47,557 nt of DNA from Patescibacteria group bacterium (GCA_018829965.1 JAHJTG010000005.1:1-47557), one strand, 5' to 3'. Counted from the stretch's first letter, positions 1 through 23,188 are shown. Notes: generated by a model from the letters alone, not told the origin. Numbers and translations are program-made.

Positions 1-41
1 ACAATTACTAAAATACTCGCTACTAAAATTTTGCTTTTCAT
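1..41 (-). CDS. 5' end of a probable secreted/membrane protein, truncated by the window edge
   Basis: ATG at 41 reads MKSKILVASILVIV (signal-peptide-like), downstream of the cassette hairpin/promoter at 84-126. Confidence 0.45.
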   Translation of the reverse strand, partial: MKSKILVASILVI

Positions 42-83
42 ATTTTTATAATTATTTTATTAATATAATAATATAATGACCTT

Positions 84-126
84 TTTTTTATCTTATCAAA
101 GAACCACCTCAATTGAAAGGTGGTTC
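84..126 (-). terminator. Cassette hairpin repeat, copy 1 (terminator plus extended -10 TGATAAGAT)
   Basis: GAACCACCT-caattgaa-AGGTGGTTC stem-loop; near-identical copies at 2100, 29607 and 31838. Confidence 0.75.
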
Positions 127-143
127 TTGACACGACTTGATGA

Positions 144-170
144 CTCCGCGGATGGGACGATTTTCGAACT
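144..170. repeat. att-like junction containing the tRNA-Asn 3' end fragment
   Basis: CTCCGCGG-atg-GGAC aligns with CTCCGCGG-cca-GGAC at 23117-23131; reads LRGWDDFRT in frame with ORF 171..359. Confidence 0.75.
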
Positions 171-251
171 TTGAGATGGGTGGATTTTATTGAAAAACCT
201 GAAAAGTTATTAGATAATGCTAAGATTGTTCTGACACAAATAACCTTAAGT

Positions 252-1220
252 TCAGACTTCACTAATCACGTCAAATCCTTTAAAACTACCGGTGATAGAT
301 ATCCCTATAACATTTTTTGCAATTTTTTTATCTTTCACTTGTTTGGCTACCTGATTTAAGGTTGCCCCGGAACCTACGGCATCATCAATAAGAAGTAAAT
401 TGTTATATTTACCACTTTCTGTTAGGACTAAAGTCTTTCCCGCATTTTCAATACGATCTTCCAATTTTGATAGAGTTTTCTGCGGAACAATGATCTCCGT
501 TTTAATTTTCTCAATTTTAATACTCTTAACATTAAGATTGAGTTGCTTTTCAAGCTCACGAATAAATTGAACCTCTCTCTTTACTGTCCAAGGTATAAAA
601 CCGACTGCATCGATACGGAACTTTTTAATCAACGAATCAATTTTAGGTTTTATCTCTGCAACTATTTGTTTAATTATTACCTTATTCCCACTTTGTTTAC
701 CATAAAGAAGAAGCTGTCCAAGCCTTGTCTTACCAAATCTTTCTATACTATAAAAATCTAAGTAGAATATTTTATCAATATACACCCTACTGAATGTACT
801 ATTAAATTTTTGCAACCCGTCAATCAAACCGCCCCTCTTAAATTTATCGTATTTATTTAAAACTTTTATATATTCATCCGCAGTTTTACTAACGTCTAGA
901 TTATTTTTATTGCACCAGTAATTAAAACCAGCGAATCCATCTTTTTTTTCTCCGCTAGGAGTAATAATGAGGTAGTTCTTTTCAATTATTTCCTTTCTCT
1001 TTTTATTTATGACTACATCTTCCTTTTCTTCTACTGAGCTTTTCAATAAATAAAAAACCTTAGGGGGTCTTCCAATCTTATCTATTTCCCCATTTCTTAA
1101 AAGATTCGCTAATTGTTTTCTTACAGCACGATTACCTATTCCTAAATAATTCGATAACTCACTTCCAGTCACCCTATTTTTTTCTTTTAAATATTTCTTT
1201 ATTTTAATACTTGTTTTCAT
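252..1220 (-). CDS. Winged-HTH plus ComF-like phosphoribosyltransferase domain protein
   Basis: N-terminal HTH (VTGSELSNYLGIGNRAVRKQL); PRPP-binding motif LLIDDAVGSGATL. Confidence 0.75.
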   Translation of the reverse strand: MKTSIKIKKYLKEKNRVTGSELSNYLGIGNRAVRKQLANLLRNGEIDKIGRPPKVFYLLKSSVEEKEDVVINKKRKEIIEKNYLIITPSGEKKDGFAGFNYWCNKNNLDVSKTADEYIKVLNKYDKFKRGGLIDGLQKFNSTFSRVYIDKIFYLDFYSIERFGKTRLGQLLLYGKQSGNKVIIKQIVAEIKPKIDSLIKKFRIDAVGFIPWTVKREVQFIRELEKQLNLNVKSIKIEKIKTEIIVPQKTLSKLEDRIENAGKTLVLTESGKYNNLLLIDDAVGSGATLNQVAKQVKDKKIAKNVIGISITGSFKGFDVISEV

Positions 1221-1317
1221 GGCTCTACTATAACATAAAAGGTTCCTAGTTCCTATTTTATTAGGAACTTTTTATATTAGGGGGATTTAAATTAAGAAAT
1301 CTATTTCTAGAAATTAG

Positions 1318-1344
1318 CTCTGCATCGTGGACGTTGTTGGAACT
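1318..1344. repeat. Degenerate att-like junction
   Basis: CTC TGC ATC GTG GAC GTT GTT GGA ACT has the same spacing as the 144 and 31884 sites (CTC-N8-GGAC-N7-GAAC). Confidence 0.55.
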
Positions 1345-1372
1345 AGGATAAGAGAGAAGGAGGAGTTTGTGC

Positions 1373-2071
1373 CTATCCCTTGTCTACCCCCTCCGGCTTC
1401 CCTTTTTCATAACCGGAATCGGCATCTCTAATATATTCCGAATATTCCTCAAATAGTTTTTGGCTGTTCATTCTTACTACTTCTGCCCATTTTTGAGCGG
1501 TTTTAATTTCTTCCCGCCAATTCTCTTTTGACACCCTAAACATAATGAAGGGATAAAAATCGCTCTGCTTAACGTCTGCTGGCAGCTCCCAACGCATAAA
1601 ACTATGCTCCATTGGTCTTACATACACCCTCACCGCTGTTTCCGGATAACCATATGCTTTGCCAAATTCAATTTGATTTTTTGCTTGCAAAATATTTTTA
1701 AGACTTTGTTCATCTTTGCCGATGGCAAAATCTTTTACTTCCCTTCTTTCTCCTTGTTCGGCGTTGTCAGTAGACGTCTGCACATCCGTACGTACCCTTT
1801 TCTTTTTATAAGGCAAGCTCAAGACAGATAAAAGATCTTCAACCGATTTTACATCTTCCTCCCTAAGGTGCTTTTTTTCTTTCCCTTGCGACCACCATTC
1901 TCCACCAACAGTAATATCTGTGACGGGCTTGTCTCCTGTTTTTAAAAGCAGGAGTCCTACCTTCTCGTCCACATATATTGAGGCGGCTTCTATTTTTTCA
2001 ACGGTTTCTTTGTCTAATATTTCTGGCCCGTTTTCTTGGGATGATGTAAATTTTTCAATTGATTCTGTCAT
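1373..2071 (-). CDS. Hypothetical protein (single-gene cassette)
   Basis: 232-aa ORF with FGKAYGYPETAV motif, bounded by att-like sites at 1318 and 2142. Confidence 0.7.
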   Translation of the reverse strand: MTESIEKFTSSQENGPEILDKETVEKIEAASIYVDEKVGLLLLKTGDKPVTDITVGGEWWSQGKEKKHLREEDVKSVEDLLSVLSLPYKKKRVRTDVQTSTDNAEQGERREVKDFAIGKDEQSLKNILQAKNQIEFGKAYGYPETAVRVYVRPMEHSFMRWELPADVKQSDFYPFIMFRVSKENWREEIKTAQKWAEVVRMNSQKLFEEYSEYIRDADSGYEKGKPEGVDKG

Positions 2072-2099
2072 AATTCTAATTAATTTAATTATTCCATCG

Positions 2100-2133
2100 T
2101 ATCAAAAAACCACCTCAGTTAAAAGGTAGTTTT
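2100..2133 (-). terminator. Cassette hairpin repeat, copy 2
   Basis: TATCAAAAAACCACCTCAGTTAAAAGGTAGTTTT. Confidence 0.7.
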
Positions 2134-2141
2134 AGTAAAAG

Positions 2142-2168
2142 CTCTCCGTGATACGCGAGTTTAGAACC
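2142..2168. repeat. Degenerate att-like junction followed by an orphan LSR-tail-like reading frame
   Basis: CTC TCC GTG ATA CGC GAG TTT AGA ACC = LSVIREFRT, 8 nt after the hairpin repeat. Confidence 0.5.
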
Positions 2169-2232
2169 GCAATTAAAGAGCATCGTAGCTACTGGAAATT
2201 CTACACTGTCCGCGAATGGCCTGAAGTTCTGG

Positions 2233-2709
2233 CTAATTCAAATACCAGATAAAGTAGTTAAGAACACTGGCAAAACTAACCCAGAGCAAGTATGGAATTA
2301 AGAGATAGGTCGCCCATCGATTGATCTTCCAGAATTTAATCATTAAAGCGATGATTAAGAGCCAGATAATGATGATGTTTATAAAAGCCAGGCCAGGGTT
2401 TTGAAGCCCGAAAAATATTATTGACCAGATAGCGTTGAAAAACAAATGAATCCAAAACAGCCACATCGCGCCTCTGGCTGTTTTGTTTTTCTCAACTTTC
2501 TGCCAAATAAGATAAATACTGATACCCATTAGGATATAAAGCATAATCCAAACCGGGCCAAACAGCCAATTGGGAGGGCTAAAACTCGGCCTCTGTAAAG
2601 TCGCATACCAAGTAGGGATGGCTGAAGTGGTAAAAAGCGAGCCGACAATCCCGGCCAGTTCACAAACGCCGACAGCAATAATCAATTTTACAAAATTATT
2701 CAGCTTCAT
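2233..2709 (-). CDS. tspO: TspO/MBR family tryptophan-rich sensory protein
   Basis: WYATLQRPSFSPPNWLFGPVW and LLIPYLLWVSFASVLN motifs; about 5 TM segments. Confidence 0.92.
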   Translation of the reverse strand: MKLNNFVKLIIAVGVCELAGIVGSLFTTSAIPTWYATLQRPSFSPPNWLFGPVWIMLYILMGISIYLIWQKVEKNKTARGAMWLFWIHLFFNAIWSIIFFGLQNPGLAFINIIIIWLLIIALMIKFWKINRWATYLLIPYLLWVSFASVLNYFIWYLN

Positions 2710-2718
2710 AAGTTTATT

Positions 2719-3123
2719 TTACCACCTTTCGGGACTATAATACCACTTCATGTTCGGATCTTTTAGTTTTTTCTCGATACCGATTAAACACTCGTCGCAT
2801 CCTTCCGGGCAGGTATCACAGCCATTGATACAAACCGCGCAGGGATTCTCTACTGCCGCAAGTTCAGGATATAATATCTTGCCCCAAAATGTCACATAGT
2901 AGCCGCCCTCGCAACTTGCCACCCACCTGCCAAAAGGCGCCCACATCACATTATAATCGCAAATCAGCTCGCCGGTGTATTTATCAATCGTGCCGTCAAT
3001 TTCAGCTCGTTCCTCAAATACCTTATTGTGCAAACTCTGATTATCCAGCCAGGGTGCCCGAGCGAATATAACAACGACAGCAGTAATTATTGCAATGATA
3101 ATGAGTTTTTTATTTCTGGTCAT
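2719..3123 (-). CDS. Hypothetical membrane-anchored Cys-rich protein
   Basis: N-terminal hydrophobic helix; CAVCINGCDTCPEGCDEC motif. Confidence 0.6.
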   Translation of the reverse strand: MTRNKKLIIIAIITAVVVIFARAPWLDNQSLHNKVFEERAEIDGTIDKYTGELICDYNVMWAPFGRWVASCEGGYYVTFWGKILYPELAAVENPCAVCINGCDTCPEGCDECLIGIEKKLKDPNMKWYYSPERW

Positions 3124-3544
3124 ATACCTGATTGAATTTCTCTTTAACTATTTTTATAACTCTATCAAGCTCTGCTTTGTCTACATTTTTGCAATCATAT
3201 TCATCAACAAATTTCACCCATTCATCGTTCCGGGGAGTGAAAAATCGTATCTCATCTATTGAATACGCGCTTTCGTCGGGCTTCAACACCTCCATTCTTC
3301 CGCCGGCCCAACCCTTATATTTAGGATCCTGAATAATTTCCTCAATAAATGAAATAGTATACTCCTTGTCTCTTTTCTTTTCAGAATCAACAATTTTCTC
3401 TACCTCTTTGTTGGTAATTTTTGAACCAGAAAGCCGCATTGAGGCGCCAGTGCTCTCAATTAATGTTTTTCTTTTCTGTTCCTTCCAAAACTCGGTGTTA
3501 AACCGATTGCCAGAAGGACGCTTTTTTGTTTTTTTCTTTGTCAT
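3110..3544 (-). CDS. Hypothetical protein with a Fic-N-terminus-like segment
   Basis: LIESTGASMRLSGSKITNKEVEKI resembles the N-terminal helix of Fic proteins; no HPFxxGNGR motif. Confidence 0.55.
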   Translation of the reverse strand: MTKKKTKKRPSGNRFNTEFWKEQKRKTLIESTGASMRLSGSKITNKEVEKIVDSEKKRDKEYTISFIEEIIQDPKYKGWAGGRMEVLKPDESAYSIDEIRFFTPRNDEWVKFVDEYDCKNVDKAELDRVIKIVKEKFNQVYDQK

Positions 3545-3640
3545 GTTTTGGATATACCAAATATGTCCAATCCGCTATATCCACTATAACGAACTGTAGC
3601 GAATTGGATAGAGGCTAATTGCCTCCCTATACAGAAAGAC

Positions 3641-6600
3641 TTATAAATTCTTTATAAACTGATCCAGTAGTCTCACTTCAATAAAATTAACTTCGGTCTT
3701 AACTGGCGGAAATTTTGTCCACCAAAATCCCATCTTCGTTGCAAAAACAGAAATGACCTTGGGATCCAAAGTTGGAGTATCCCAACCCAATTTTGTCACC
3801 AAATCCCTACCTTTAGTTTTTAAGTGATTTGCTCTTTTTTCAACTCGTTGGAGATAACCCCCCTTAAAGATGGTATCCCTTTTCATCTCTCCAAATATTT
3901 TTCGTTGCATTCTCCCAGAATCTTTATTGCTATACGGCGGGTCAATAATCTTTGATTCAATGTTGAGTAAAACATTTTTATTTTTCAAATATGCGAGCAC
4001 ATCGTAATCACCGATATCGGTAATTGTTTCATCATACTTGTGGGGGTATACACCTTTTTCTACATTGTTCGTATGCCGCAAAGCAATTTCTTTTATCTTC
4101 TCCACCAAACAATTTCTTAGATTTTCATGTCCCCTATTTAAAACTGCCTTTACCGTAGGTGCATCTAGATCAGATGGCAATTTATGCTTACTAGATATGC
4201 CCATCCAAATATGACTAGTCCGATCAATAGAGTGAGGACCCCAATAATAATGACCATCGATTTTTATGAGCGGTCTAATATCAAAACGCATTGGGCGTTT
4301 AGTATGCTCCCAGACAGGAATATCCTCTGCGGGTTCTTGTTCACCTTTAATGGTTAATATCCCTTCTGGCTTAAGAGCCAAGAAATTCAGAATAGCGTCC
4401 GTCTCTGATATATCGTAGCCTTTTATTTGTTTAGCGCACGCAGAGGCTATTTCTTTTGAAGTAGCATAATAGTAAGTACCCTCGCCTTTTTCAGTGTCAA
4501 CAGCCCATAATGCCAGCACCTGTTGCACATTCACAAAATTCTTAAGACCGAAAGCAAAATCTTTTTTAAAAGCTCTATCTAATTCATCCAAATAATCCTC
4601 AATAGGAATATTTGAATCGGCTGTATCCTCCTTCTTGCCAATGATTCCGAGGTTAATTTTTGCTTGTTCCTTGCCATATTCCTTTTCCATCGAAGCAATG
4701 TCGTTTTTTTCATCACTTGTTGAAACGATATAATCTCTGTCAATGTTCACATTTACCGGGTAAAGTTCGTAATTAATAAAATCACTTGCAACATATATAT
4801 CAATGAGCCGATCTGCAAATACAAGCAACTCTTTTAAATGCTGGTTGCTAAATTTTGTATTACCTCCGGGTTGCAACTGAACAAACTTTTCGATTAGATA
4901 TCTATAAACCTTATACCAATGGAGAAACTTTTTTTCGTTTTCTGACGATTTTCCTTCTCTTTCATAATCAACCTCATGGTCGCGGGAAGCTTTGATTTCT
5001 TCTTCAGCATGCCACGAATCATGTATTAACGCATTACTTTTTTCTAGCAATACAGGAATAGCATCGCCCAAGTTATGCCCCTGAATTTTAATGTTTAAGA
5101 ATTGGACTAGTTTATTCCTAAGATTATTTAATTTTCTCTTGCCTTCATCAGCCGAATAACTTCCGGGTTGTATATTTAACCCTAGGGCTATTTTTGCTAT
5201 CTCTTTATCCGCCAACTTATATTCTTTCTGATCTGGCAATAGAGTTCTGATTCCTTCTGGGAAAGAAACTTTTTTCTCGACCATAAATGTTTTAAATCGA
5301 GCCTTTTTGTTTTTTTCCTTTTCTAGCTCGCTTCTTATATTTGCCAAATCTGGTTCCGCCACCAAGGTGTTAAGTTGTTCAAGCACATCAACCAATAACT
5401 GGATTTGGATAGACCTATCAGCGACTATCCTAAGCGCTTCCATCATTTTTTCTAGGTTATATACAACTCTTACTCCGTAATCCATTGATTGTAGTCGCGC
5501 ACAATCCATAGCCCAAAGATTAGTATTTTGCACGAGATGTCTCACATGAGCAAGCTCATCCTCTTTAAGTGCTATCGATGATGGGCAAAAGAATATCTGA
5601 ACTTTATTGTGAGATTTAGTAAAATTGAGCTTCTCAATAATATTCGGATAGATATCGATTGCATCAAATAAACTTTGCATTATTGAATCATTAATTCCTC
5701 CTTCATCTAATTCCATCCGATGAACAGGTGCATTAATAAAAAACGAAGCTTGTCCTATTTTCTGATAATAAGCATATCCAAAAAAAGTCCGTGAATTGAG
5801 AATAAAACCGGTCTTTGTTTTCCTGTCGGCAGGTATAGTCCAACCCCTAGGATGACCAAAGAAATTCTCTTCTGGAAAAATTTCCCAGAATTTTGATAAT
5901 GAACGATAACGAAAATCTGTTCCCCAGTGTGGATCAAGCACAACGAGGTTGGGCGTGTTGGCGCCAGGAATCAATACGCTGTGAGAATCTCTAAATGATC
6001 CAAATCGATCCAAATAAGAAGTCATTGGCGACAAACTAAATGAATCTTGCATACTTTCAACATATTCAAAAAAATCAGCTATCTCGTGTAAGTCTTCTAT
6101 TTCATCTATAATTCCCAAAAACTGATCGAGCCCAATAATTTCTCCGACTAAGTCCTTTGGCTGTCCAATCATGCCGAAATCGGTAGTAATATGCGGGATG
6201 ACAGTAATAATTAACGGTTCAAGGGCCGTTCTGCCTTCTCCTTTTGTAGATTCAAATTGAACCATTTTCTCCTCACCGTGTAAACCTAATCTTGTAGGTG
6301 ATTTAGTAAAAAAATTTTGGGCTTCTTGAAGTTCGGGAATAAGAGACTCGAGCATTTTTTGTTGTGTAGTACCAGCAGTCGGTGGAGGTAAGACATGAAC
6401 CAATATAAGTTTATTTTTTGAGCGAAACGCCGTAGTGAATATCGTTTTATGAGGTTTTAGATCGTCCTGTATTGCGCTACAAATAAAAAATAATTCTTCC
6501 TCTCGCACCCGTTGCTTTATAAAGTGATACAGTTCAACTCCTATTTTAATTTCATAATGTTTTATCTCTTTTACGGTTGATGGATAATGTTCTGATAAAA

Positions 6601-7390
6601 TTTTCCCCCACTTATCAAACAATACTGCGAAATATTTTCGTGGAAGTACCGGGAAAAATCTGCCAGATTTTTTAAGAAAGAAATAAAAACAATTTTTTCC
6701 ATCATGAGCACGGCTCAAAAAGTCTTCTTCGGGAGGGACTTCAATGGGGCGAGCGGAATCTAAATCCTTTGTATATTCTTTAATTAGATCGGGGCTAAAA
6801 TTTGAAGTAGGATCAAAATTGTCTAAAAACCCCACCGCGGCTTGCCAAAATTCTTCTGAGGGCAAACTAAAGCCCCCCAACTCCACATCTCGTTTATCTT
6901 GCGCCTTAACATCGATTCCGTTGATTATTTTGTCTTGGACAGTCAAACAGAATTCAAACTCTTTTATCGGAGACCGTCCAAGTTTCTCTAAATAATATTC
7001 TTCAAAACCCCTATGGATTACCTCAAACGAATAACAAAAGTCGTAAGGATTAGATAGGTCGCCACCATAAAGCGTCCTGTAGAATTTTTTATTCAAAAAG
7101 TATTTAATTTCACCCCAATCGTTCTCTGGAAGATAATCTTCCATCATTGGGAAAGAGGGAACAATCAGAAGTAATTCTTGCACAAATTTTTTAAAGTGAT
7201 TGTATTCAGTAATTTTATTTTCTTTAGGGAGCTTGTCAAAAATGGACTCAAAAATGACATAAAGATATTGAGACTTTATGGGGCTAGCGACATTAGGAAG
7301 CCATAAATTCAATACGAAAAAAGACTTCAATAGATCCTCGATGCTATAATCCAAAAGAAAGTTTTTTAATTTTACATTATTTTCGTCCAT
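3641..7390 (-). CDS. Large hypothetical protein with a C-terminal PD-(D/E)xK/NERD-like nuclease domain (candidate defence gene)
   Basis: 1249-aa ORF; GDYDVLAY...LLNIESK motif near the C-terminus. Confidence 0.6.
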   Translation of the reverse strand: MDENNVKLKNFLLDYSIEDLLKSFFVLNLWLPNVASPIKSQYLYVIFESIFDKLPKENKITEYNHFKKFVQELLLIVPSFPMMEDYLPENDWGEIKYFLNKKFYRTLYGGDLSNPYDFCYSFEVIHRGFEEYYLEKLGRSPIKEFEFCLTVQDKIINGIDVKAQDKRDVELGGFSLPSEEFWQAAVGFLDNFDPTSNFSPDLIKEYTKDLDSARPIEVPPEEDFLSRAHDGKNCFYFFLKKSGRFFPVLPRKYFAVLFDKWGKILSEHYPSTVKEIKHYEIKIGVELYHFIKQRVREEELFFICSAIQDDLKPHKTIFTTAFRSKNKLILVHVLPPPTAGTTQQKMLESLIPELQEAQNFFTKSPTRLGLHGEEKMVQFESTKGEGRTALEPLIITVIPHITTDFGMIGQPKDLVGEIIGLDQFLGIIDEIEDLHEIADFFEYVESMQDSFSLSPMTSYLDRFGSFRDSHSVLIPGANTPNLVVLDPHWGTDFRYRSLSKFWEIFPEENFFGHPRGWTIPADRKTKTGFILNSRTFFGYAYYQKIGQASFFINAPVHRMELDEGGINDSIMQSLFDAIDIYPNIIEKLNFTKSHNKVQIFFCPSSIALKEDELAHVRHLVQNTNLWAMDCARLQSMDYGVRVVYNLEKMMEALRIVADRSIQIQLLVDVLEQLNTLVAEPDLANIRSELEKEKNKKARFKTFMVEKKVSFPEGIRTLLPDQKEYKLADKEIAKIALGLNIQPGSYSADEGKRKLNNLRNKLVQFLNIKIQGHNLGDAIPVLLEKSNALIHDSWHAEEEIKASRDHEVDYEREGKSSENEKKFLHWYKVYRYLIEKFVQLQPGGNTKFSNQHLKELLVFADRLIDIYVASDFINYELYPVNVNIDRDYIVSTSDEKNDIASMEKEYGKEQAKINLGIIGKKEDTADSNIPIEDYLDELDRAFKKDFAFGLKNFVNVQQVLALWAVDTEKGEGTYYYATSKEIASACAKQIKGYDISETDAILNFLALKPEGILTIKGEQEPAEDIPVWEHTKRPMRFDIRPLIKIDGHYYWGPHSIDRTSHIWMGISSKHKLPSDLDAPTVKAVLNRGHENLRNCLVEKIKEIALRHTNNVEKGVYPHKYDETITDIGDYDVLAYLKNKNVLLNIESKIIDPPYSNKDSGRMQRKIFGEMKRDTIFKGGYLQRVEKRANHLKTKGRDLVTKLGWDTPTLDPKVISVFATKMGFWWTKFPPVKTEVNFIEVRLLDQFIKNL

Positions 7391-7487: not shown

Positions 7488-9026
7488 ATGCTTACTAAAA
7501 GAAGAAAAGAAGTCTTGGACTTCATAAAAAAATATAAGGCTAAGAAAAAATATGCTCCCTCGCTTGAGGAAATACGGAAGCATTTTCGGCTTGCCTCCGT
7601 CTCAACCGCCCATTTTCATGTAAAGAAATTACAAGAAGACGGCTATCTGCAAAAAGAATACAATCAACCACGAGGCATTGATGTAATCAAACGCGATGAA
7701 ATAATAAAAATTCCAATAATGGGAACTATTACTGCGGGCCAACCGATTGAAGCAATAGAAGTCCCAGATTCAATGGTCGCAATTTCTAAAAAAGAAATAA
7801 CTGCGAACCAAAAACATTATGCTTTACGGGTCCGAGGCGATAGCATGATCAATGATGGTATATTTGATGGCGATGTTGTTGTAATTCGCAAGCAAGAGAC
7901 CGCCGACGATGGCCAAACAGTCGTAGCAATTATTGATGATAATGAGGCTACTCTCAAAAAAATTTACACAGAAAAATCGCGCATTAGATTACAACCAGCA
8001 AATCAAGAAATGTTGCCTTTCTACCGAAAAGAAGTAGAGGTGCGAGGTGTTGTAGTCAAAATCATAAGAAATTTAGAAAATGGCACCCAGGATAATACAC
8101 TCGCTTATAAGAAAAAAGTCTTTTTGGATCGCATAAAAAGCTCTAACCCCAAAAGTCAAAATAAATATAAAAGGGTTGTCCTTTCCCCTATTAGATATGC
8201 CGGGGGGAAAACTTTAGCAGTTGGGCATGTTATTGAATTATTGCCCGATAATACAAAAAGAGTTGTTTCACCTTTCTTCGGCGGTGGTTCAATTGAAATA
8301 GCTATGAGCAAAGAGTTAGATTTAGAAGTAATCGGTTATGACATTTTTGATATTCTTTGCAATTATTGGAAATTTCAAATAGAAAAACCAGAACTTCTTT
8401 ATAATAAATTAAAGGAATTAAAACCAAACAAAAAAACCTTTGAAAAAATAAGGTTAATTTTAAACGATGTGTGGAAGAAAAAGATTAAGTTAGACCCGCT
8501 AACACTCGCAGTTTATTATGTCTATAACTTTAATCTCTCCTATGGTCCCGGATTTATGGGCTGGTCGTCTGAGATTTACTTGGATGATAAAAGATACAAA
8601 AGAATGATAGAAAACATTCGGGATTTTAACCCCAAAAATCTAAGGGTGGAATGTGCGGACTTTCAAGAAGTAATTAAAAATCATCCTAATGACTTTCTAT
8701 ATTGCGACCCTCCATATTATATCGGAAAAGACTCAAAAATGTTTAAAGGGATCTATCCGATGAGAAATATACCTGTTCATCACAACGGATTCCCACATGA
8801 AGCCCTAAGAGATCTATTAAAAAATCATAAAGGCGGTTTTGTGCTTTCTTATAATAATTGCCCAACAATAAGAGAATATTATAAAGATTTCCAGCAATTC
8901 TTCCCCAGTTGGCAATATACAATGGGCCAAGGAGAAACAAGAATTGGCTTAAATAGAAAAAATGGCAACGGTAGCCATGTAAAAGAATCTCATGAGATAA
9001 TTGTTTTTGGTCCGCCTAAAAAATAG
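7488..9026 (+). CDS. LexA repressor fused to a Dam/D12-class N6-adenine DNA methyltransferase
   Basis: LexA HTH (YAPSLEEI...SVSTAHFHV), Ala-Gly site (TAGQP), GDSM and TLKK catalytic motifs; then YAGGK, SPFFGGGS, DPPY. Confidence 0.9.
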   Translation: MLTKRRKEVLDFIKKYKAKKKYAPSLEEIRKHFRLASVSTAHFHVKKLQEDGYLQKEYNQPRGIDVIKRDEIIKIPIMGTITAGQPIEAIEVPDSMVAISKKEITANQKHYALRVRGDSMINDGIFDGDVVVIRKQETADDGQTVVAIIDDNEATLKKIYTEKSRIRLQPANQEMLPFYRKEVEVRGVVVKIIRNLENGTQDNTLAYKKKVFLDRIKSSNPKSQNKYKRVVLSPIRYAGGKTLAVGHVIELLPDNTKRVVSPFFGGGSIEIAMSKELDLEVIGYDIFDILCNYWKFQIEKPELLYNKLKELKPNKKTFEKIRLILNDVWKKKIKLDPLTLAVYYVYNFNLSYGPGFMGWSSEIYLDDKRYKRMIENIRDFNPKNLRVECADFQEVIKNHPNDFLYCDPPYYIGKDSKMFKGIYPMRNIPVHHNGFPHEALRDLLKNHKGGFVLSYNNCPTIREYYKDFQQFFPSWQYTMGQGETRIGLNRKNGNGSHVKESHEIIVFGPPKK

Positions 9027-9028
9027 AG

Positions 9029-9568
9029 CTATTTTCTATTCAATCTCTTTCGATGGTACAAATTATGTTTTTTGGCTAAATCTGGTGGATACGGCTTATG
9101 ATTCTCTTGGAAATTCCAATCGGGATATTTCTTCTCTCTTAAAAAATAGTCAGATTTACACAAATCTTCCATCTCTTTAAAGCTTGCGATTTCTACTTTT
9201 TTAGGACCAAACAACCCGTTAACCGTAGCCAATGTTCTAGGAGAAGTTATCATAAATAGTTCTACCTTTGATTTGCTTTTAAGAGCTCTTTCAATAAGTA
9301 AATGAGCAACAAACCGAGGGACGCCCGGACTGCCCGTCATAGCGGATACATAAAAAATCATAGTTGCTTTAATCCCTCCTTTTGAAGTAGAGCCGCCAAT
9401 TTTTTTAATAATCCCGTCTTGAACTATTAAATAAATCCTTGCCGAATTATCAGTAAGCACCTTCTTATCAAGGGTAGGCAGATATTTAATATCTATCTTA
9501 TTTCTATGATGTTTTTTTAATATAAAATCGCCTACTTTAATTGCTGTTTTTACATCTTTAATATTCAT
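9029..9568 (-). CDS. GIY-YIG (Hpy188I-like) restriction endonuclease
   Basis: RIYLIV...IKKIG motif, conserved E, C-terminal P-x-W-N-x-Q; convergent with the MTase. Confidence 0.7.
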   Translation of the reverse strand: MNIKDVKTAIKVGDFILKKHHRNKIDIKYLPTLDKKVLTDNSARIYLIVQDGIIKKIGGSTSKGGIKATMIFYVSAMTGSPGVPRFVAHLLIERALKSKSKVELFMITSPRTLATVNGLFGPKKVEIASFKEMEDLCKSDYFLREKKYPDWNFQENHKPYPPDLAKKHNLYHRKRLNRK

Positions 9569-9685: not shown

Positions 9686-10414
9686 ATGAGTATGGAAAAT
9701 AATATGACACCAGAAGAAAAATTTAATCAAAAAATGTGGTGGCTTTTACAGCAAATCAAAGAAGCTGATCTTTTGAGATCTCCCGAGGAACCATTTGAAT
9801 TTTTAATCCAGCAACAAAAAGACGCACCCCCCAAAGACGACCAAAGAAAACTCGTTTATAAATTAGAAAACTTAAAAGCCATAAAGATTAGTAAACAATT
9901 TACCTATATAGACTCCGGCCTTACTAAAGTTATATTTAAAGAAAATGCTTCAGAAAGTGAAGCAAATGGCTTTCATTTAAAAATCCTGCCGAAATTTGAT
10001 GAAGTTTATGGGGAATTTAGAGAAAAAGCCGAATTGTTAAAAGAGAACACAACTAAAAAAGAATTAAAACAAAAGAGTGGCACAATTGATAAAATCATTA
10101 TTGTAAAACCGAAAGACGGTAATAGATTCAAAATAATAATCAATGATGATTATCACCAAAGGCCGCTTGATGGCGACATGGCCAAGCCAAGCTGGAATTT
10201 ATTATTCAGAGTGGCCGATGGTGATCTTATCGAAGATCAAGAATATAAATCATCATTTGATTTTTTTAATAGTAATGAAAAATGCAGATTATATACACAA
10301 ACGGGCTATCCAAAAACAAAAATACTAAAAAGAGAAAGCGGGTATATCAAACCGGCTGTTAAAATGGAAATCATCACCGAGAAAGCATACAAACAAAGAT
10401 GTAAAAAGGGCTGA
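9686..10414 (+). CDS. Hypothetical protein; C-terminal domain paralogous to 15498..16667 (putative regulator)
   Basis: Shared KSG.I.KI.I, NDDY, FN.N.KC..Y and EII.E..Y..R pattern. Confidence 0.7.
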   Translation: MSMENNMTPEEKFNQKMWWLLQQIKEADLLRSPEEPFEFLIQQQKDAPPKDDQRKLVYKLENLKAIKISKQFTYIDSGLTKVIFKENASESEANGFHLKILPKFDEVYGEFREKAELLKENTTKKELKQKSGTIDKIIIVKPKDGNRFKIIINDDYHQRPLDGDMAKPSWNLLFRVADGDLIEDQEYKSSFDFFNSNEKCRLYTQTGYPKTKILKRESGYIKPAVKMEIITEKAYKQRCKKG

Positions 10415-10452
10415 AATACGGCTTAAAAAAACTTAAAATGTGGATAACTTCG

Positions 10453-10480
10453 GCACCGCTTCAAAAAAGCGGTGTTTTTT
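10453..10480 (+). terminator. Intrinsic terminator
   Basis: GCACCGCTT-caaa-AAGCGGTGT followed by a T-run. Confidence 0.7.
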
Positions 10481-10567
10481 AATTACGCTTAAAAGTTTTC
10501 GGCATTTTTTAAGCGTTTTGTAATTGATAAATTTTAGATAGAGATAAAATTACTAACTTTTGTGAAC

Positions 10568-10735
10568 ATGTCGAACAAAAACGCACAACTGAATATCAAG
10601 CAAATTGAGGAAATGGTGGCCGAACGGCTGGCCGAGATTTTAGTTCAGCAATTGGAATGGCAGAGAGAACAGCAAGAAAAAATTAAAGAGAAAAATAAGT
10701 ATGGAAAAGATAAAAGAAAAATTCATAACCAGTGA
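10568..10735 (+). CDS. Small hypothetical protein (55 aa, absent from the ORF track)
   Basis: MSNKNAQLNIKQIEEMVAERLAEILVQQLEWQ...; first gene of the element core operon. Confidence 0.55.
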   Translation: MSNKNAQLNIKQIEEMVAERLAEILVQQLEWQREQQEKIKEKNKYGKDKRKIHNQ

Positions 10736-10949
10736 TTTCTATACCGCTGTCTTTTTAATGGCCAGCGGATATAAGCTATTCGGAATCAACAAAACCGAGC
10801 CTCGGCGCTATCGCTTTATTTTTGAGGACGATAAAAATAGAGCGAAACTGCTCGAGGATTTTTTTAATAACAAAACAAAGGTTGAAGCAAGAAAGTTTAT
10901 TGGCGCCATAAAAGAGCTGAAGTCGCTGATGTATAACGACGCTATTTAA
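10701..10949 (+). CDS. DUF5659-like small protein
   Basis: TSDFYTAVFL..GYKL..I...F.F pattern typical of this small phage/MGE family. Confidence 0.6.
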   Translation: MEKIKEKFITSDFYTAVFLMASGYKLFGINKTEPRRYRFIFEDDKNRAKLLEDFFNNKTKVEARKFIGAIKELKSLMYNDAI

Positions 10950-10963
10950 GCCGGCAAATCAAT

Positions 10964-11779
10964 ATGGAAAATGTAAAACCAACAATTGATAATAATGACT
11001 TCATCCGGCTACCAAGAAGCATAAAGGAATTTTATCTGGACAGATTTTTACTGCTCGAGGAATTTATTGTCTTGGTTTGGCTCTGGTTCGGCGCCAATCC
11101 CAAAACCGGCAGGATTAATGTCAGCTACGAAGGATTGAGTAAAGATTTTCAGGAAAGATACTCAAAAAATCAGATTAACAAGATAATGCTCGAGCTTAAG
11201 CGGAAGAAGCTGATATGGTATCCCAGACAGCAAGGCCGCAGAAGTTCTTTTAATGTGGATATCCAGAATTATCCGCTAAGTAAAGGCAAGCCCAGAGATA
11301 TTACTGAATTGTTTAATGGCAACTCTGGCAGAAGTTCCAGCAGAAGTGAAAGTGATAATCCAGCAGAAGCGCCGGCAGAAGTTAAAACATCTTGGCAGAA
11401 GTTAAAAACCGAAAAAAAGAGCTTAATAAAGCGATTTTCTACACCCTTCAATAATGACTCTGGCAGAAGTTACAATAACGATAACGAGAAAGAAAATTAT
11501 AATAAAAATCGATCGTCTTTTAATAAAATTTATGATCGGGTCGGTTTAATGGACTTTACTCCTAAGAGCTACGAGGAAGAAAGGTGCTGGCACATAGCAA
11601 GATATCTGGACGAAAAAGATATGAGGTTTATGCGCTCAGCTCTTAAGAAATACGGATTTCACGCCATAGAGAGCGCCTATAACGAAATTAAGGAAAGACC
11701 GCCGGGATCAATTCAAAATAAAGGCGCCTATTTCAATGAATTATCAAAGAGGTCTACAGATAAAAACAAATCTACTTAA
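10964..11779 (+). CDS. Putative replication initiator (phage O/RepO-like)
   Basis: N-terminal wHTH-like region, low-complexity linker encoded by DNA repeats, C-terminal IQNKGAYF motif. Confidence 0.65.
   Translation: MENVKPTIDNNDFIRLPRSIKEFYLDRFLLLEEFIVLVWLWFGANPKTGRINVSYEGLSKDFQERYSKNQINKIMLELKRKKLIWYPRQQGRRSSFNVDIQNYPLSKGKPRDITELFNGNSGRSSSRSESDNPAEAPAEVKTSWQKLKTEKKSLIKRFSTPFNNDSGRSYNNDNEKENYNKNRSSFNKIYDRVGLMDFTPKSYEEERCWHIARYLDEKDMRFMRSALKKYGFHAIESAYNEIKERPPGSIQNKGAYFNELSKRSTDKNKST
11235..11471 (+). repeat. Iteron-like repeats (7 x GCAGAAG[T/C]), putative origin
   Basis: Copies near 11235, 11323, 11337, 11360, 11372, 11392 and 11458; CTCTGGCAGAAGTT occurs twice exactly. Confidence 0.7.
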
Positions 11780-12294: not shown

Positions 12295-12362
12295 CCAGCT
12301 GTGGGTAACTCGCTTGGCTTGTGCCAAGGGTAAGCACATAATGGGGGTTGCCAAAAAACAAT

Positions 12363-14063
12363 ATGAAAAATGCATTAATTTACTGCCGAGTATCAACCGA
12401 AGAACAAGTTAAAGAAGGCTACTCTTTAGACGCGCAGGAAAAATTCTGCGCTAAATTTGCTGAAAACGATGACTACCGAATCGTGGAAGTATTTAGAGAT
12501 GAAGGCAAAAGCGCCACCACCCTTGATAGACCAGCCCTTCAGGATCTTTTAGCCAAATGCCAGCAGGATGACTCTGTTGACGCTGTATTCGTTCAGGAAA
12601 CAGACCGGCTGGCCAGAAACACCAAAGATCATCTGACCATCAGGGCTGTGCTCCAAAAAGCAGGAGTTAAGCTCGTTTCTGTTGCCCAGCCAATGCTTGA
12701 TGACAGCCCGGAAGGCAATATGATTGATACGATTTTGGCCAGTGTTAATCAATTTCAATCTGACCTTAACAGCCGAAAGACCAAAAAAGGCCTGCAGGAA
12801 AGATTTGACCAGGGCTGGTGGCCGGGCTGGGTGCCGCTCGGTTATCTTAATGTGGGTGTGGGCGGCAACGCTGACGGCCGCAAAGCCAAAAAGATTATTA
12901 AAAAAGACCCGAAAAGATTTGATCTGATTAGAAAAATGTTTGATATGGTTTTGAGCGGAAACTACTCTGTCCCTCAAACTCACACTATCGCAGTTACCGA
13001 GTAGGGTTTTAGAATGCCCAACGGAACTAAAATGTCCCGAAGCACTTTTTACTCTGTTATTGGCAATCCTTTTTATTATGGCTATTACGAATATCCAAAA
13101 AAGTCTGGCATCTGGCATAAAGGAAAACACCCGGCCATGATCACCAAAGACGAATACGATCAAATTCAAAATATGATCAGGCCAGACAATATCAAGCCAA
13201 TGAAGCACGTATTCGCTTTTACGGGTTTAATTAAATGCGGTGAGTGCGAAGCCACGATCACAGCCGAACATAAAACCAAAAGACAAATAAATGGCAATGT
13301 CCATTATTACACTTACTACCACTGCACTAAACGAATAAACAAAAACTGTTCTCAAAGAGTAATTCAGGTGCAAGATTTAGAAAAAGAGATCGCTGAGATA
13401 TTGGGAGGTTTGACCATACCGCCAGAATTCAATGAATGGGCAATGAGCTGGCTTAAAGACGAAAACCACAAAGAAGCTGATGATAGAAACGATATTTTAG
13501 ATACTCAACAAAAATCATACAATGAATGCATTAAGAAAATTGACAATCTGATTGATATGCGAGCTGGCGGTGAGATTAGCGAACAGCAGTTCAAAGACAA
13601 GAAAGCCAAAATTGTTAAAGAAAAAATGCACTTGCAGGAATTATTAAAAGATACAGACAAACGAGTAGACAATTGGCTGGAACGAGCAGAGGAAGCGTTG
13701 ATATTTGCCCAAAACGCCAAACTTGCCTTTGAAAATGGAACATTACAGAGAAAAAGAGAGATACTAAACACCTTAGGTTCGAACCTCCTGTTAAAAGACA
13801 GAAAACTGCGTATTAACTTGGAAAATTGCCTTTTGCCCATGCAAAAAGTCGATACTGGGTCCGGCAACAAAAAAAGCGGGTTCGAACCGCTTGATTTGTG
13901 CGTAGATAAAAGGAAAAACACCGCTTCAGGCGGTGTTCGTCCAGATTGGCTCCCCTTCAAGAACGCACTTACTCGGTTTGATTGGAGAGCATTTAGGGTT
14001 GAGCTGGACGCCTTTGTCTCAACTTATAATATCTCTTTGGGCGGAAATTGGGGCGGAGTATAA
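12363..14063 (+). pseudogene. Large serine recombinase interrupted by an in-frame TAG (13002-13004)
   Basis: YCRVST, DRLAR and Zn ribbon CGEC...YYHC; ORFs 12348..13004 and 13014..14063 are in the same frame. Confidence 0.85.
13917..13976. repeat. Hairpin plus att-like junction inside the 3' end of the LSR
   Basis: AACACCGC-ttcag-GCGGTGTT then TGG CTC CCC TTC AAG AAC (WLPFKN), positionally equivalent to LLRGQD in the other LSR. Confidence 0.55.
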
Positions 14064-16695: not shown

Positions 16696-16708
16696 CATTT
16701 TAGAAAGT

Positions 16709-21646: not shown

Positions 21647-23155
21647 ATGAAAGCAGTAATACTCGCAAGAGTTTCAACAACAAGGCAAGAAGAGGAGGGG
21701 CACTCGCTCCCCGCTCAAATAAGGAGGTTGCAGGAATACGCAAAGAAAAAAGGCTTTGAAATAGCCGAGACTTTTTCTTTTTCTGAAAGTGCGGGAGGCA
21801 AAATTAGAAAGAAATTTGAAGAAGTTATGACCTATATCAAAACTCATAAAGATGTTAAAGTTTTGCTTTGCGAGAATGTTGACCGAGCGACAAGGAACTT
21901 TAAGGACGCTGTTGATTTAGACGAAATGAGAAAAAACGAGGGTTTAGAAATTCATTTCGTCCAAGACGGATTTTTCATAAATAAAAATGCTACTGGCAAC
22001 CAAATGTTTATGTGGGAGGCAAAGGTATTTATTGCCAAGCAATACTTAAACCGATTATCTGATGATGTCAAAAGAAGCAACGAGCAGAAGCTACAAAATG
22101 GCGAATGGATAAACAAGCCCCCGATAGGATACATTGGCACGATAGACCCTAAGGGCAACAAAGGAATGATACCAGACCCGTTAAAAAGCCACCTTGTCGT
22201 TAAAATCTTTGAAATCTATGCTACTGGGAGCTCCTCAATTCTAAAGATTAAAGAAACAATGGACGCTCTGGGTTTAAGAGGCAATACAAGGGACAATAAG
22301 CCCCTCTGTAAGAGCCAAATACACTATATCCTTAATAATCCCTATTACTACGGCTTAATGCGTGTTAACGGGCAATTATACGAACATAAATATGAACCCT
22401 TAATAACCAAACAACTTTTTGATAGAGTGCAGGAAGTATTTAGTGGTTATGATAAAAAACCTTTCAGATATGGTTGTAAGCCTTTTGTATTTAGGGCTAT
22501 GGTAAGATGTTCAGAGTGCGGGTGCTTGATTGGCGGAGAGCTTAAAAAAGGACACTATGTTTATTATTCTTGCAATAATTATAAGAAAGTCCACAAGCAA
22601 AGGGTTTATGTTAAAGAGATTGATATGCTTGAACCAGTTCGCAGGGTTTTAGAAAAGATAAAATTAACAGACCAACAAAAAAACGAACTGATAGAAGATT
22701 TTAAGAAATCAGACAAAAGTAAGAATAAGTTTGTAAGTGCCAAGCTCCCAGAGCTAACGGCAGAGTTTGATTTATACGAAACGAGAAAAAGCGAAACTTG
22801 GAATAAATATGTGGATAAGGAAATAAGTAAGGAGATGTATGACAAAAAATACAAAGAATATGACGACAAGCAGAACGCTATAAAAACCCAAATGGGAAAA
22901 TTCCAAGTAGCTGATGTAGAATTTTACACAACAATAAATATGATTGTGGCTCTCTCTCAAAGAGCCGAAGAAATCTTTGAAAGTTCTGAACCTCACGAGA
23001 AAAGGGCTTTTGCCAATTTCTTACTTCAGAACTGCCAATTAGAAGGCGAAAAGCTGAAATTTGAACTTAAAAGCCCCTTTGACGGGGCTTTATCTGCACA
23101 CGACTGTTCTAACTTGCTCCGCGGCCAGGACTCGAACCTGGAACCTTCTCGTTAA
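21647..23155 (+). CDS. Large serine recombinase whose 3' end overlaps tRNA-Asn
   Basis: ARVST, DRATR, CSEC...YYSC; final codons LRGQDSNLEPSR are antisense tRNA sequence. Confidence 0.93.
   Translation: MKAVILARVSTTRQEEEGHSLPAQIRRLQEYAKKKGFEIAETFSFSESAGGKIRKKFEEVMTYIKTHKDVKVLLCENVDRATRNFKDAVDLDEMRKNEGLEIHFVQDGFFINKNATGNQMFMWEAKVFIAKQYLNRLSDDVKRSNEQKLQNGEWINKPPIGYIGTIDPKGNKGMIPDPLKSHLVVKIFEIYATGSSSILKIKETMDALGLRGNTRDNKPLCKSQIHYILNNPYYYGLMRVNGQLYEHKYEPLITKQLFDRVQEVFSGYDKKPFRYGCKPFVFRAMVRCSECGCLIGGELKKGHYVYYSCNNYKKVHKQRVYVKEIDMLEPVRRVLEKIKLTDQQKNELIEDFKKSDKSKNKFVSAKLPELTAEFDLYETRKSETWNKYVDKEISKEMYDKKYKEYDDKQNAIKTQMGKFQVADVEFYTTINMIVALSQRAEEIFESSEPHEKRAFANFLLQNCQLEGEKLKFELKSPFDGALSAHDCSNLLRGQDSNLEPSR
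23070..23091 (-). terminator. Probable tRNA-Asn terminator encoded inside the LSR gene
   Basis: AAAGCCCC-tttgac-GGGGCTTT, 25 nt past the tRNA 3' end. Confidence 0.6.
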
Positions 23156-23188
23156 CAGCGAGTTGCACTACCATTGTGCTACCGCGGA
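23117..23188 (-). tRNA. tRNA-Asn(GTT)
   Basis: TCCGCGG/CCGCGGA acceptor stem, CT-GTT-AA anticodon loop, GGTTCGAGTCC T-arm; CCA not encoded. Confidence 0.97.

Follow-up and report, generated by a model that had tools for sequence, protein, structure and literature searches.

The distal end (positions 84 to 3650) of a tRNA-Asn island, lying in the 47,557-nt stretch of DNA analysed here (the window), carries accessory genes set between short junctions, and comparison with intact genes identifies these junctions as displaced 3' ends of genes for large serine recombinases (LSRs), not as simple tRNA fragments. Stepwise LSR accretion at tRNA-Asn has good support, and we consider it likely that successive integrations by an LSR clade targeting tRNA 3' ends built the array, with the sites at 144, 1318 and probably 2142 as scars. 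The initial annotation had proposed att-like junctions at 144, 1318, 2142 and 3623: the first two are firm (ranks 2 and 1 in a position weight matrix (PWM) scan), the third is moderately supported and the fourth (6.0 bits) is dropped. An origin of the sites from LSR attachment was borne out, since the stubs match intact LSR gene ends and hold the two top matrix ranks; the att-like reading stands as to LSR attP but not as to plain att or tRNA copies, the sites being recombinase-gene stubs, at which the translations in the initial annotation hinted without naming them as such.

The host is a Patescibacteria-like groundwater bacterium with a genome of 740 kb (0.74 Mb), and the 5' edge of the window coincides with a contig end. 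As the initial annotation had it, the array is distal in the tRNA-Asn island. At its other end an LSR gene (LSR1) is fused to tRNA-Asn: the tRNA gene supplies the last 13 codons of LSR1, attR consists of tRNA-Asn and the adjoining LSR1 3' end, the island abuts the 3' side of the tRNA, and the core genes rpoD and dnaG lie directly beyond it. LSR1 carries three Pfam domains (PF00239, 3e-19; PF07508, 4.7e-12; PF13408, 1.2e-5). Folding indicates that the terminator hairpin behind tRNA-Asn is the antisense of the LSR1 3' coding part; empty tRNA-Asn sites with a plain terminator were confined to relatives at a greater distance. rpoD and tRNA-Asn remain neighbours at 9 of the 29 relatives' loci (ARAGORN), and also in G002, a genome of the same genus, whose tRNA carries an intron. 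The island further contains a second recombinase gene (LSR2) with an in-frame stop, and its only tyrosine integrase (17444-18574, Pfam) inside another element 14 kb from the array; the Pfam search detected no integrase in 1-7390. The stubs account for the breaks of these genome assemblies at such units: forks fall exactly at stub-bounded units in the contig pairs C3/C8 and C6/C13, each pair having a 141-nt common start. C8 begins with bases 1-141 of the window, the prefix common to C3 and C8 is exactly 141 nt, and these two contigs combine one left arm with two different right arms.

Comparison of LSR1 homologues puts the attachment site of this clade within the recombinase gene itself, some 30-37 codons short of its stop. 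In the integrated state the recombinase frame enters the tRNA gene and ends on tRNA-encoded residues, and the original tail-coding piece is found as a stub of roughly 100 nt, as a rule preceded by a terminator hairpin. Among the 111 full-length homologues (120 listed), 40 have a T-arm-encoded ending of the D-S-N-L type, another 48 terminate at the L-L-R-G position or immediately beyond it, and at least eight have a longer tail of the stub types. The attP DNA of two intact genes (L158 and L170) matches junctions of G002. In the stubs of relatives the substitution pattern is that of coding sequence (pS 0.38-0.80 versus pN 0.14-0.27 in 10 of 10 pairs) and the frames close after 23-34 codons; this purifying-selection signal may predate the deposition of the stubs. 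The three window junctions represent three stub types, all different (Table 1).

Table 1 Features of the distal array and of the tRNA-Asn end of the island, in window coordinates.
Feature	Position	Strand	Evidence or remark
Further gene leaving the window (ATG at 40) and its upstream region	1..79	-	
Junction 1 left arm: D1 hairpin (terminator for minus-strand transcripts) and 16-nt spacer	80..142		
Junction 1 (J144), type-I LSR tail stub	143..251	+	PWM, tail profile, BLAST-short
Cargo 1, HTH-PRTase	252..1220	-	Pfam HTH_11 and PRTase-CE, both weak
Hairpin between cargo 1 start and junction 2	1248..1269		
Junction 2 (J1318), type-II LSR tail stub, 37-codon open frame	1317..1428	+	PWM rank 1
Cargo 2, hypothetical protein, 232 aa	1373..2071	-	
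Junction 3 left arm: D1 hairpin and 9-nt spacer	2086..2140		
Junction 3 (J2142), probable degenerate type-II stub, 36-codon open frame	2141..2249	+	
Cargo 3, three genes	2233..3544	-	
TspO (cargo 3)	2233..2709	-	Pfam TspO_MBR 2.8e-52
Hypothetical protein, 134 aa (cargo 3)	2719..3123	-	
Hypothetical protein, 144 aa (cargo 3)	3110..3544	-	
Intergenic, two hairpins	3545..3650		Proposed 3623 junction unsupported
LSR1, recombinase of the tRNA-proximal element	21647..23155	+	Pfam Resolvase, Recombinase and Zn_ribbon_recom
tRNA-Asn(GTT)	23116..23188	-	Island anchor, attR side

The junctions were scored with a 28-nt matrix (matrix 1) built from the P' arms of seven intact full-tail LSR genes on metagenome contigs, none of them from the host genome or from a putative junction, and scanned over all 1,478,130 genome positions with the reversed genome as control. 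The site at 1318 ranked first (26.5 bits) and 144 second (23.3 bits), with a best control score of 19.8; 2142, with 17.0 bits, ranked fifth and is within the range of the controls (19.8, 17.5, 17.1), and the score at 3623 is equalled or exceeded at 333 positions. Matrix 2, built from six junctions of relatives, gave the same ranking, with 1318 first (32.3 bits, control maximum 15.6) and 2142 fourth (16.8 bits); 3623 scored -2.0 bits, a value equalled or exceeded at 7,097 positions, and a third PWM score for it was 1.0 bits. Of the two sites that the initial annotation asked to be weighed against background, 1318 lies above the control and 2142 inside its range. A profile of 19 tails from outside the host genome recovered 144 at E=1.3e-7 (best control 0.43), and 1318 was the top genome match (E=0.0039) only with same-genus rows in the tail profile; 2142 was neither among the 12 best matches listed for either type-II tail profile nor among the matches at E<30 with the type-I profile. 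BLAST-short matched 144 to the recombinase tail of P0090 (E=2.7e-5) and returned no recombinase tail for 1318 or 2142.

A conserved hairpin (repeat family D1) has only eight copies in the genome, six of them preceding a junction. The site at 2142 sits 9 nt 3' of one copy, which makes a chance origin unlikely; we regard it as a probable degenerate type-II stub, with moderate support. The junction 1 hairpin has a fold z of -4.3 and a U-run after the stem. That the junctions have the same spacing is only loosely true: hairpin and junction are 16 nt apart at 144 and 9 nt apart at 2142, and the hairpin some 48 nt upstream of 1318 is a different one. Folding of 3545-3640 gave two terminator-like hairpins and no junction. 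J1318 is identical to three G002 junctions at 25, 24 and 23 of 28 nt and to the attP of the intact LSR gene L191 at 22, and differs from the tRNA-Asn acceptor by one base within the common block. The best identity of J2142 is 20/28, to a junction of the relative G013, with 17-18/28 to intact-gene sites. J144 matches the tRNA-Asn acceptor end over 8 nt and then diverges into coding for a W-D-D-F-R-T tail, in a frame open to 356. The LSR1 arm and the J144 left arm have a 7-nt motif in common, whose distance to the junction is 5 nt greater in the former; this is at most suggestive of the P-type and B-type half-sites of LSR structural work, which differ in the spacing of the zinc-ribbon motif. Together, the scans and the homology identify 144 and 1318 as real LSR-derived junctions.

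The cargo is sporadic across 60 related genomes, in agreement with the proposal that these are not conserved syntenic core genes. The HTH-PRTase, present in 3 of the 60, matches PsyrT (1.3e-10) and also PRTase_III-A in PADLOC, and its PRTase domain resembles defence-system effectors; G047 has the hairpin that lies upstream of it ahead of its own PRTase gene as well. Cargo 2 belongs to no Pfam, NCBIfam, PADLOC or PHROG family and has weak relatives (27-31% identity) in six of these genomes, and TspO occurs in 29, at unrelated places. The junctions were said to separate minus-strand cargo, and they do so for the HTH-PRTase and the hypothetical gene; no right-hand junction was found for the TspO block (TspO and two small genes), whose right end is undefined because 3623 fails. 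No IntI, attC, attI or common promoter was seen with the cassettes.

The LSR clade comprises 697 database proteins at E<=1e-20 and occurs in 25 of the 60 family genomes, where a tRNA lies within 400 nt of the recombinase stop at 24 of 30 LSR loci; at 32 of 80 metagenome loci the tRNA overlaps the stop (26 Asn, 4 His, 2 Gln). One locus (L124) displays tandem accretion directly: after a full-tail LSR gene come cargo and then a second LSR gene abutting tRNA-Asn, the cargo including a module 84-86% identical to window positions 7488-9568. In the suggested comparison with relatives, G002 carries, on its contig C6, an array bounded by near-identical stubs, in which the hairpin precedes four junctions and is lacking at a fifth, immediately upstream of the PRTase gene. 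Three of these junctions are of the J1318 type, and the array holds homologues of the PRTase (79% identical) and of TspO (TspO-like, 40%), in an order and with neighbours that differ from the window. The claim that the same accretion operates at a second tRNA was supported by an array of the same kind at tRNA-Ser within the window and by another at tRNA-Asp in G013, where at least ten stubs lie upstream of the tRNA and the adjoining 19 kb contain no ORF above 364 aa, that is, an array without a recombinase.

Integration at the tRNA 3' end swaps the recombinase tail for tRNA-encoded residues, and the stub would mark the other end of the element, as attL or as the P-P' joint of two adjoining elements. 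The crossover would fall at the acceptor end or no more than a few bases into it, because stub and tRNA have only 4-9 nt in common there. Newcomers would insert between the tRNA and the resident recombinase, displacing older elements outward, as in the one observed example. An LSR normally requires an attB with two B-type half-sites, whereas an occupied tRNA site is P-B', which speaks against repeated integration beyond that one tandem locus. The three tail types among the stubs of 84-3650 imply at least three separate events. The gene or genes beside each stub would be cargo left after loss of the recombinase module, which could proceed by decay or by excision using an inner stub, the latter leaving the outer cargo and an acceptor-plus-hairpin site. 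The stub at 144 is the best kept and yet the most distal, and a strict 'oldest outside' order predicts the reverse.

How the units came to lack a recombinase may be read in two other ways. They could be decayed full-size LSR elements whose recombinase modules were lost by random deletion and which are now immobile, a possibility that we take seriously while giving it less than even chances. The degeneracy of J1318 and J2142 relative to intact attP sites is consistent with decay, as is the single-base departure of J1318 from the tRNA-Asn acceptor, and decay does occur, as the in-frame stop of LSR2 in the same island attests; however, deletion ends would have had to hit the hairpin-spacer-stub boundaries repeatedly in G000, G002 and G013, and one G002 array holds three near-identical J1318-type stubs. 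Somewhat doubtful in our view is that the units are true minimal cassettes (stub, cargo, and hairpin with spacer) moved in trans by the resident LSR, as in an integron. The units are neat, each stub abutting a cargo stop codon and a hairpin with spacer directly preceding the next stub; the stretches between cassettes hold no remnant of a recombinase pseudogene, with no match to LSR1 or LSR2 in 1-7390 or in L079; cassette order varies between same-genus genomes; C3 and C8 share a left arm and differ in the right; and the tail stubs retain open frames of native length. Decayed full elements would nevertheless give the same picture, and a site that combines one B-type with one P-type half is inactive unless a directionality factor is present; no such factor was identified here.

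Two explanations dispense with LSR integration. The junctions might be functional intergenic repeats behind accessory genes (terminators, or tRNA-like RNA processing signals) involving no recombination: read on the cargo strand, each resembles a piece of tRNA 3' end followed by a strong terminator hairpin, and this hairpin also stands behind true tRNA genes in relatives. Such an origin is very improbable, given that the stubs are homologous to intact LSR gene 3' ends at both the DNA and the protein level; in addition, the substitution pattern is that of coding sequence on the opposite strand, and the Asn-type stubs show no Rfam family and no covarying T-arm-like helix. Classical accretion by the tyrosine integrase of the island, through partial tRNA-Asn direct repeats, has an integrase gene at hand and is the textbook case for such islands; we give it almost no credence, since a search of the window with a 26-nt pattern of the tRNA-Asn 3' end (up to three mismatches) returned the tRNA alone, and the junctions follow the tRNA for only 4-8 nt before continuing as LSR tails.

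Serial LSR integration, the reading we favour, has counterparts in several known systems, although the literature searched contained no description of an attachment site inside a serine recombinase gene. LSR1 has the three domains of LSR integrative elements, and its element has hybrid attL and attR sites with short crossover identity. In the SCC elements of staphylococci and enterococci, LSRs insert at the 3' end of rlmH and form composite tandem islands, in which recombinase-less cassettes are bounded by repeated att sites that are not parts of a recombinase ORF. The present array is like SCC in LSR insertion at the 3' end of a conserved gene and in its tandem recombinase-less cassettes, and unlike it in the tRNA target and in att within the recombinase ORF, Ccr presumably belonging to a different LSR group. 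With integrons it shares mostly single-gene, co-oriented cassettes, structured sites between them and a fixed platform alongside; unlike in integrons, no IntI tyrosine recombinase lies beside the array, and the inter-cassette site consists of a hairpin, a spacer and an LSR tail stub derived from LSR attP, not of an attC, and the stubs themselves do not fold. In the integration-dependent immunity of mycobacteriophages, attP lies inside the repressor gene and integration by a tyrosine integrase changes the C-terminus of the repressor; here too attP lies in a gene, but in that of the recombinase itself.

Tycheposons of Prochlorococcus are tRNA-adjacent islands that grow by repeated site-specific integration with older elements pushed outward; 910 of 937 use tyrosine recombinases, and what they leave as scars are incomplete copies of the tRNA. 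Accessory cargo, a streamlined genome, and degenerate remnants with att scars across the island are common to both, whereas the recombinase here is an LSR and the scars are pieces of its gene with 4-9 nt in common with the tRNA. As in Islander and tycheposon islands, one flank is the 3' side of an intact tRNA gene, with core genes beyond it; the displaced partial copies of the tRNA 3' end expected between such elements were not found. According to PMC8371274, the SSV-type 'suicidal' integrases are tyrosine recombinases exclusive to archaea, whose integration partitions the integrase gene and is linked to chromosomal capture of elements. The attachment site inside the integrase gene, the tRNA target and the piece at the far element end are alike; the present enzyme is a bacterial serine recombinase that loses its last 30-37 residues instead of a large part and gains tRNA-encoded ones. 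It is conceivable, though we think it improbable, that this clade is the bacterial serine-recombinase counterpart of the 'suicidal' integrases and doubles as a cassette system with the stubs as live docking sites. The tail swap could then act as a built-in switch between an integrating and a resident form of the recombinase; excision via any stub would rebuild the full-length recombinase and remove all cassettes between stub and tRNA, excision at an inner stub would deposit the outer cassettes, and tRNA genes of Patescibacteria would serve LSRs as integron-like platforms.

Accessory genes vary among candidate-phyla-radiation bacteria despite tiny genomes and a small number of recognised mobile elements, and this locus shows one concrete route to such variation. 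The widespread LSR clade leaves recognisable stubs, so that sequence alone suffices to map islands and the boundaries inside them, and its natural pairs of full-tail and tRNA-tail proteins offer LSR engineering a test of the role of the C-terminal tail.

In G000, a genome of 739,551 bases in 18 contigs (approximately 35% G+C) whose protein relatives bear database names indicating Patescibacteria, the window is the opening 47,557 bases of contig C3. Positions 1-23155 are all island-like, with the core genes rpoD and dnaG lying to the right of tRNA-Asn and the large serine recombinase (LSR) gene LSR1 reaching 40 nt into the tRNA, its last 13 codons being tRNA sequence. Also in the island are a tyrosine integrase, two Dam-type methylases, many family-less genes and a second LSR gene that carries an in-frame stop; the array at 84-3650 forms the far end of the island. 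A classical tRNA direct repeat was searched for and none was present; Rfam (whole window, plus a relaxed threshold on 1-3800) gave nothing beyond two tRNAs and one sub-threshold miRNA match. One TAG interrupts the second LSR gene, whose tail is complete and of the F-D-W-R-A-F-R-V type; its 3' coding part contains a hairpin and an acceptor-like block. The gene therefore represents an un-recombined (attP-like) state in the island. A fusion of LexA (DNA-binding and S24 peptidase) with a Dam-type methylase adjoins a 179-aa endonuclease-like gene (PHROG 1111, 1.7e-13); the pair shows 84-86% identity to a pair in L124, a tRNA-Asn island of another metagenome, and a LexA paralogue, 52% identical across 207 residues, lies at C3:204468-205076. 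At the other end of the window, an IS200-like Y1 transposase gene is flanked by three copies of the 28-nt palindromic repeat D9.

Coordinates of features in the window, with ranks and scores under the 28-nt LSR P'-arm matrix
Feature	Position	Strand	Matrix rank	Bits
D1 hairpin repeat	80-126; 2086-2132			
Junction 144	144		2 of 1,478,130	23.3
Junction 1318	1318		1 of 1,478,130	26.5
Probable junction 2142	2142		5 of 1,478,130	17.0
Rejected site 3623	3623		333 positions as good	6.0
LexA-Dam fusion and endonuclease-like gene	7488-9568			
Second LSR gene	12348-14063			
In-frame TAG of second LSR gene	13005-13007			
LSR1 (502 aa), left of tRNA-Asn	21647-23155	plus		
Terminator-like hairpin, antisense of LSR1	23040-23115			
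tRNA-Asn(GTT)	23116-23188	minus		
tRNA-Ser(GGA) array	29603-33159			
Ser-type stubs	29643; 30749; 31354; 31885			
LAGLIDADG-type endonuclease gene	33160-34179			
D9 repeats (three copies)	45981-46851			
IS200-like Y1 transposase gene	46022-46753			

The initial annotation had proposed four att-like junctions in the array, the last of them tentatively, and the motifs are present at all four positions. The cleanest test was a 28-nt matrix built from the P' arms of seven intact LSR genes with full tails, taken from metagenome contigs; it ranked three of the sites among the top five, and the best scores in the reversed-genome control were 19.8, 17.5 and 17.1 bits. The same site order was obtained with a matrix of six junctions from relatives and with a matrix from the related genome G013 only. 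Site 144 was also recovered at the protein level (tail profile, E=1.3e-7; BLAST-short to the tail of the LSR1 homologue P0090, E=2.7e-5), and 1318 was the top genome match (E=0.0039) only with same-genus rows in the profile. The type-II tail profile without these rows left both 1318 and 2142 outside the 12 best matches, BLAST-short of the two peptides against 120 LSR proteins gave zero tail matches, and 2142 was missed by every protein-level search (profiles and BLAST-short). At the nucleotide level, three junctions in G002, a genome of the same genus, share 25, 24 and 23 of 28 nt with 1318, and the attP of L191 (an intact LSR gene) shares 22 of 28; the best identity of 2142 is 20 of 28 nt. 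Sites 144 and 1318 are regarded as certain junctions and 2142 as a probable one, because chance would rarely place a top-five matrix match 9 nt behind a copy of a hairpin that occurs eight times in the genome. The fourth site was rejected, given its weak matrix score and the presence of two terminator-like hairpins only in 3545-3640.

This strong hairpin belongs to D1, a 47-nt repeat; six of its eight genomic copies lie directly before junction-like sequence, and two are in the tRNA-Ser region of the window. Relatives hold further copies of the 16-nt core seen at site 144: six in G013 (four in one contig upstream of tRNA-Asp), four in a second relative (G001) and one each in two more genomes (61 scanned; reversed-pattern control, 0-2 matches per genome). 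The relatives' copies have a uniform orientation relative to the nearby tRNA, and their coding strand is the one opposite the cargo: they run into a conserved 23-34-residue peptide (R-G-W-(R)-D-D-F-R-T-[FL]-x-W ... P-E ... L-L) followed by a stop, in a frame closed 4-9 codons upstream in most. Differences among five copies (G013, G001) are mostly synonymous (pS 0.38-0.80 and pN 0.14-0.27 in 10 of 10 pairs). The att-like junctions of the initial annotation are pieces coding for LSR tails, displaced from the 3' end of recombinase genes (stubs).

The recombinases themselves bear on this reading. LSR1 has 697 homologues at E<=1e-20; among the 120 listed, 111 are full length, of which 40 end in a reversed reading of a tRNA T-arm (D-S-N-L and similar), 48 terminate at a conserved L-L-R-G or immediately past it, at least eight (e.g. 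P0016, P0090, P0002, P0074) have a tail approximately 30 residues longer of the exact stub types, and the remaining 15 are mixed (some deeper into the tRNA, some ending at L-L-R-G, some ambiguous). A tRNA (26 Asn, 4 His, 2 Gln) overlaps the recombinase stop in 32 of the 80 metagenome loci fetched with P0090; 11 others run off the contig and 37 are other cases, including about ten with full tails. Among the family genomes, a tRNA lies within 400 nt of the LSR stop in 24 of 30 loci (Asn, Gln, Lys, Asp, Ser, Leu, others). The homologue C-termini and the tRNA-overlapping loci together place the attachment site of the LSR1 clade inside the recombinase gene, 30-37 codons before the stop, and the integrated form has exchanged its own tail for tRNA-encoded residues.

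Other explanations were weighed against LSR tail-coding pieces. A tRNA-like fold of the stubs was ruled out, since folding was confined to the hairpins, and so was a crossover in the T-loop, as the tRNA is intact yet site 144 retains both sides of that position. Bases 1-141 may be the native flank of tRNA-Asn, though the arm is not confined to it, standing beside other tRNAs and in further genomes too. C3 and contig C8 have exactly their first 141 nt in common (gene start, hairpin, spacer) and split beside the acceptor-like block, C8 continuing into an island at tRNA-Gln that has an LSR gene of its own. Contigs C6 and C13 likewise have a common 141-nt start at a stub unit, and in relatives many LSR genes lie a few hundred bases from contig ends; stub units are repeated or variable in the sampled populations. 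Six sequencing runs contain part of window 1-4000, two of them covering more than half.

Several details accompany these forks. In C8:142-250, an 80-nt piece separates the shared left arm from a stub at C8:223, and the start of this piece resembles the tRNA-Asn 3' end of another lineage (acceptor block as in genomes G005 and G027). C6:1-480 and C13:1-480 are two copies of one stub-plus-cargo unit with differing left arms; 26-27 nt are inserted within the D-D-F-R-T codons of the stub, and the C6 copy has an additional palindromic insert of approximately 55 nt just past the tail. Within the window, the tRNA-Ser array contains Dus, NUDIX, a 138-aa protein and an FAD oxidoreductase, separated by Ser-type stubs (two with an extra hairpin insert of approximately 35 nt) whose core is nearly identical to that of the Asn-type stub at 144; the LAGLIDADG-type gene lies directly upstream of tRNA-Ser, and in contig C7 (~2576-2700) the tRNA-Ser flank hairpin is joined to a long Ser-type stub.

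The cargo does not consist of syntenic core genes. In the 60 family genomes it is sporadic: three genomes carry the phosphoribosyltransferase (PRTase; identity 79, 73 and 61%), six the 232-aa protein (27-31% identity) and 29 TspO, the last at unrelated places often close to contig ends. The PRTase domain of the HTH-PRTase resembles defence effectors (PADLOC PsyrT, 1.3e-10; retron type III-A PRTase) and TspO is a clear family member; the remaining cargo proteins received no family assignment (Pfam, NCBIfam, PADLOC, PHROG). The cargo of 84-7390 was absent from the 80 metagenome LSR loci, from earlier loci and from the rest of the G000 genome, and with the patterns used neither stub nor D1 hairpin was found at the PRTase loci of genomes G047 and G019. 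On one strand of a G002 contig (C6), four hairpin-preceded junctions and a fifth without D1, directly upstream of the PRTase gene, set apart the units [TspO-like + 113 aa], [PRTase], [125 aa] and [335 aa + 254 aa]; three of these junctions are of the 1318 type. A 1318-type stub follows the PRTase start in both G000 and G002, and past approximately 45 nt of it the cargo diverges (232-aa gene in the window versus 125-aa membrane protein in G002); at the PRTase stop stands a type I stub in the window and a type II stub in G002. The two genomes thus show mosaicism at the level of cassettes, its breakpoints falling at the junctions. An LSR gene of G002 abuts tRNA-Asn beside rpoD, and this tRNA (L080, G002:C2 ~2236-2535), missed by ARAGORN, is split in the anticodon loop by an insert of approximately 230 nt, possibly a group I intron; similar LSR read-through tails (..Y-T-x-P-K-I-T-x-R-x-G-L-Y-H..) in G013 and metagenomes suggest that such inserts are common.

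The three stubs in 84-3650 are of differing types and so record separate events. The serial accretion envisaged in the initial annotation holds, with its sites further specified as LSR tail-coding pieces; the small units, its 'minimal cassettes', may be self-moving, carried along when an LSR element excises via an outer stub, or dead remains. On the tRNA side, tandem accretion is seen in L124, where cargo, including the LexA-Dam and endonuclease module, lies between a full-tail LSR (10001-11536) and a second LSR (16246-17742) overlapping tRNA-Asn (17730-17802). Between these LSRs, a tail sequence of 60 nt or more occurs as two identical copies in inverted orientation, 4.6 kb apart, at 11476(+) and 16123(-), and the segment could be invertible or once inverted. 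Upstream of its tRNA-Asp, G013 carries at least ten stubs of three tail types, and a recombinase-sized ORF is absent from the adjoining 19 kb. At empty tRNA-Asn sites of more distant relatives a terminator hairpin stands immediately behind the tRNA; in the window, the conserved stretch of LSR1 coding for K-S-P-F-D-G gives, when read antisense, a hairpin like an intrinsic terminator, with a U-run, 25 nt behind tRNA-Asn, and the LSR1 gene seems to double as the terminator of this tRNA. Since the array hairpins form terminators as well, every inserted unit supplies a tRNA terminator.

Islands anchored at tRNAs and growing by repeated integration are already known, and SCC elements are composite islands built by LSRs, including cassettes without a recombinase. 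The tycheposon preprint describes adjacent elements separated by partial tRNAs, with older remnants present, and tyrosine recombinases in 910 of 937 elements. Archaeal tyrosine integrases of the SSV type have the att site inside the integrase gene, and a review (PMC8371274) calls these integrases 'exclusive to archaea'. In the full-text literature searched, largely outside subscription journals, neither an LSR whose own ORF contains attP nor arrays of this kind in Patescibacteria were found described.
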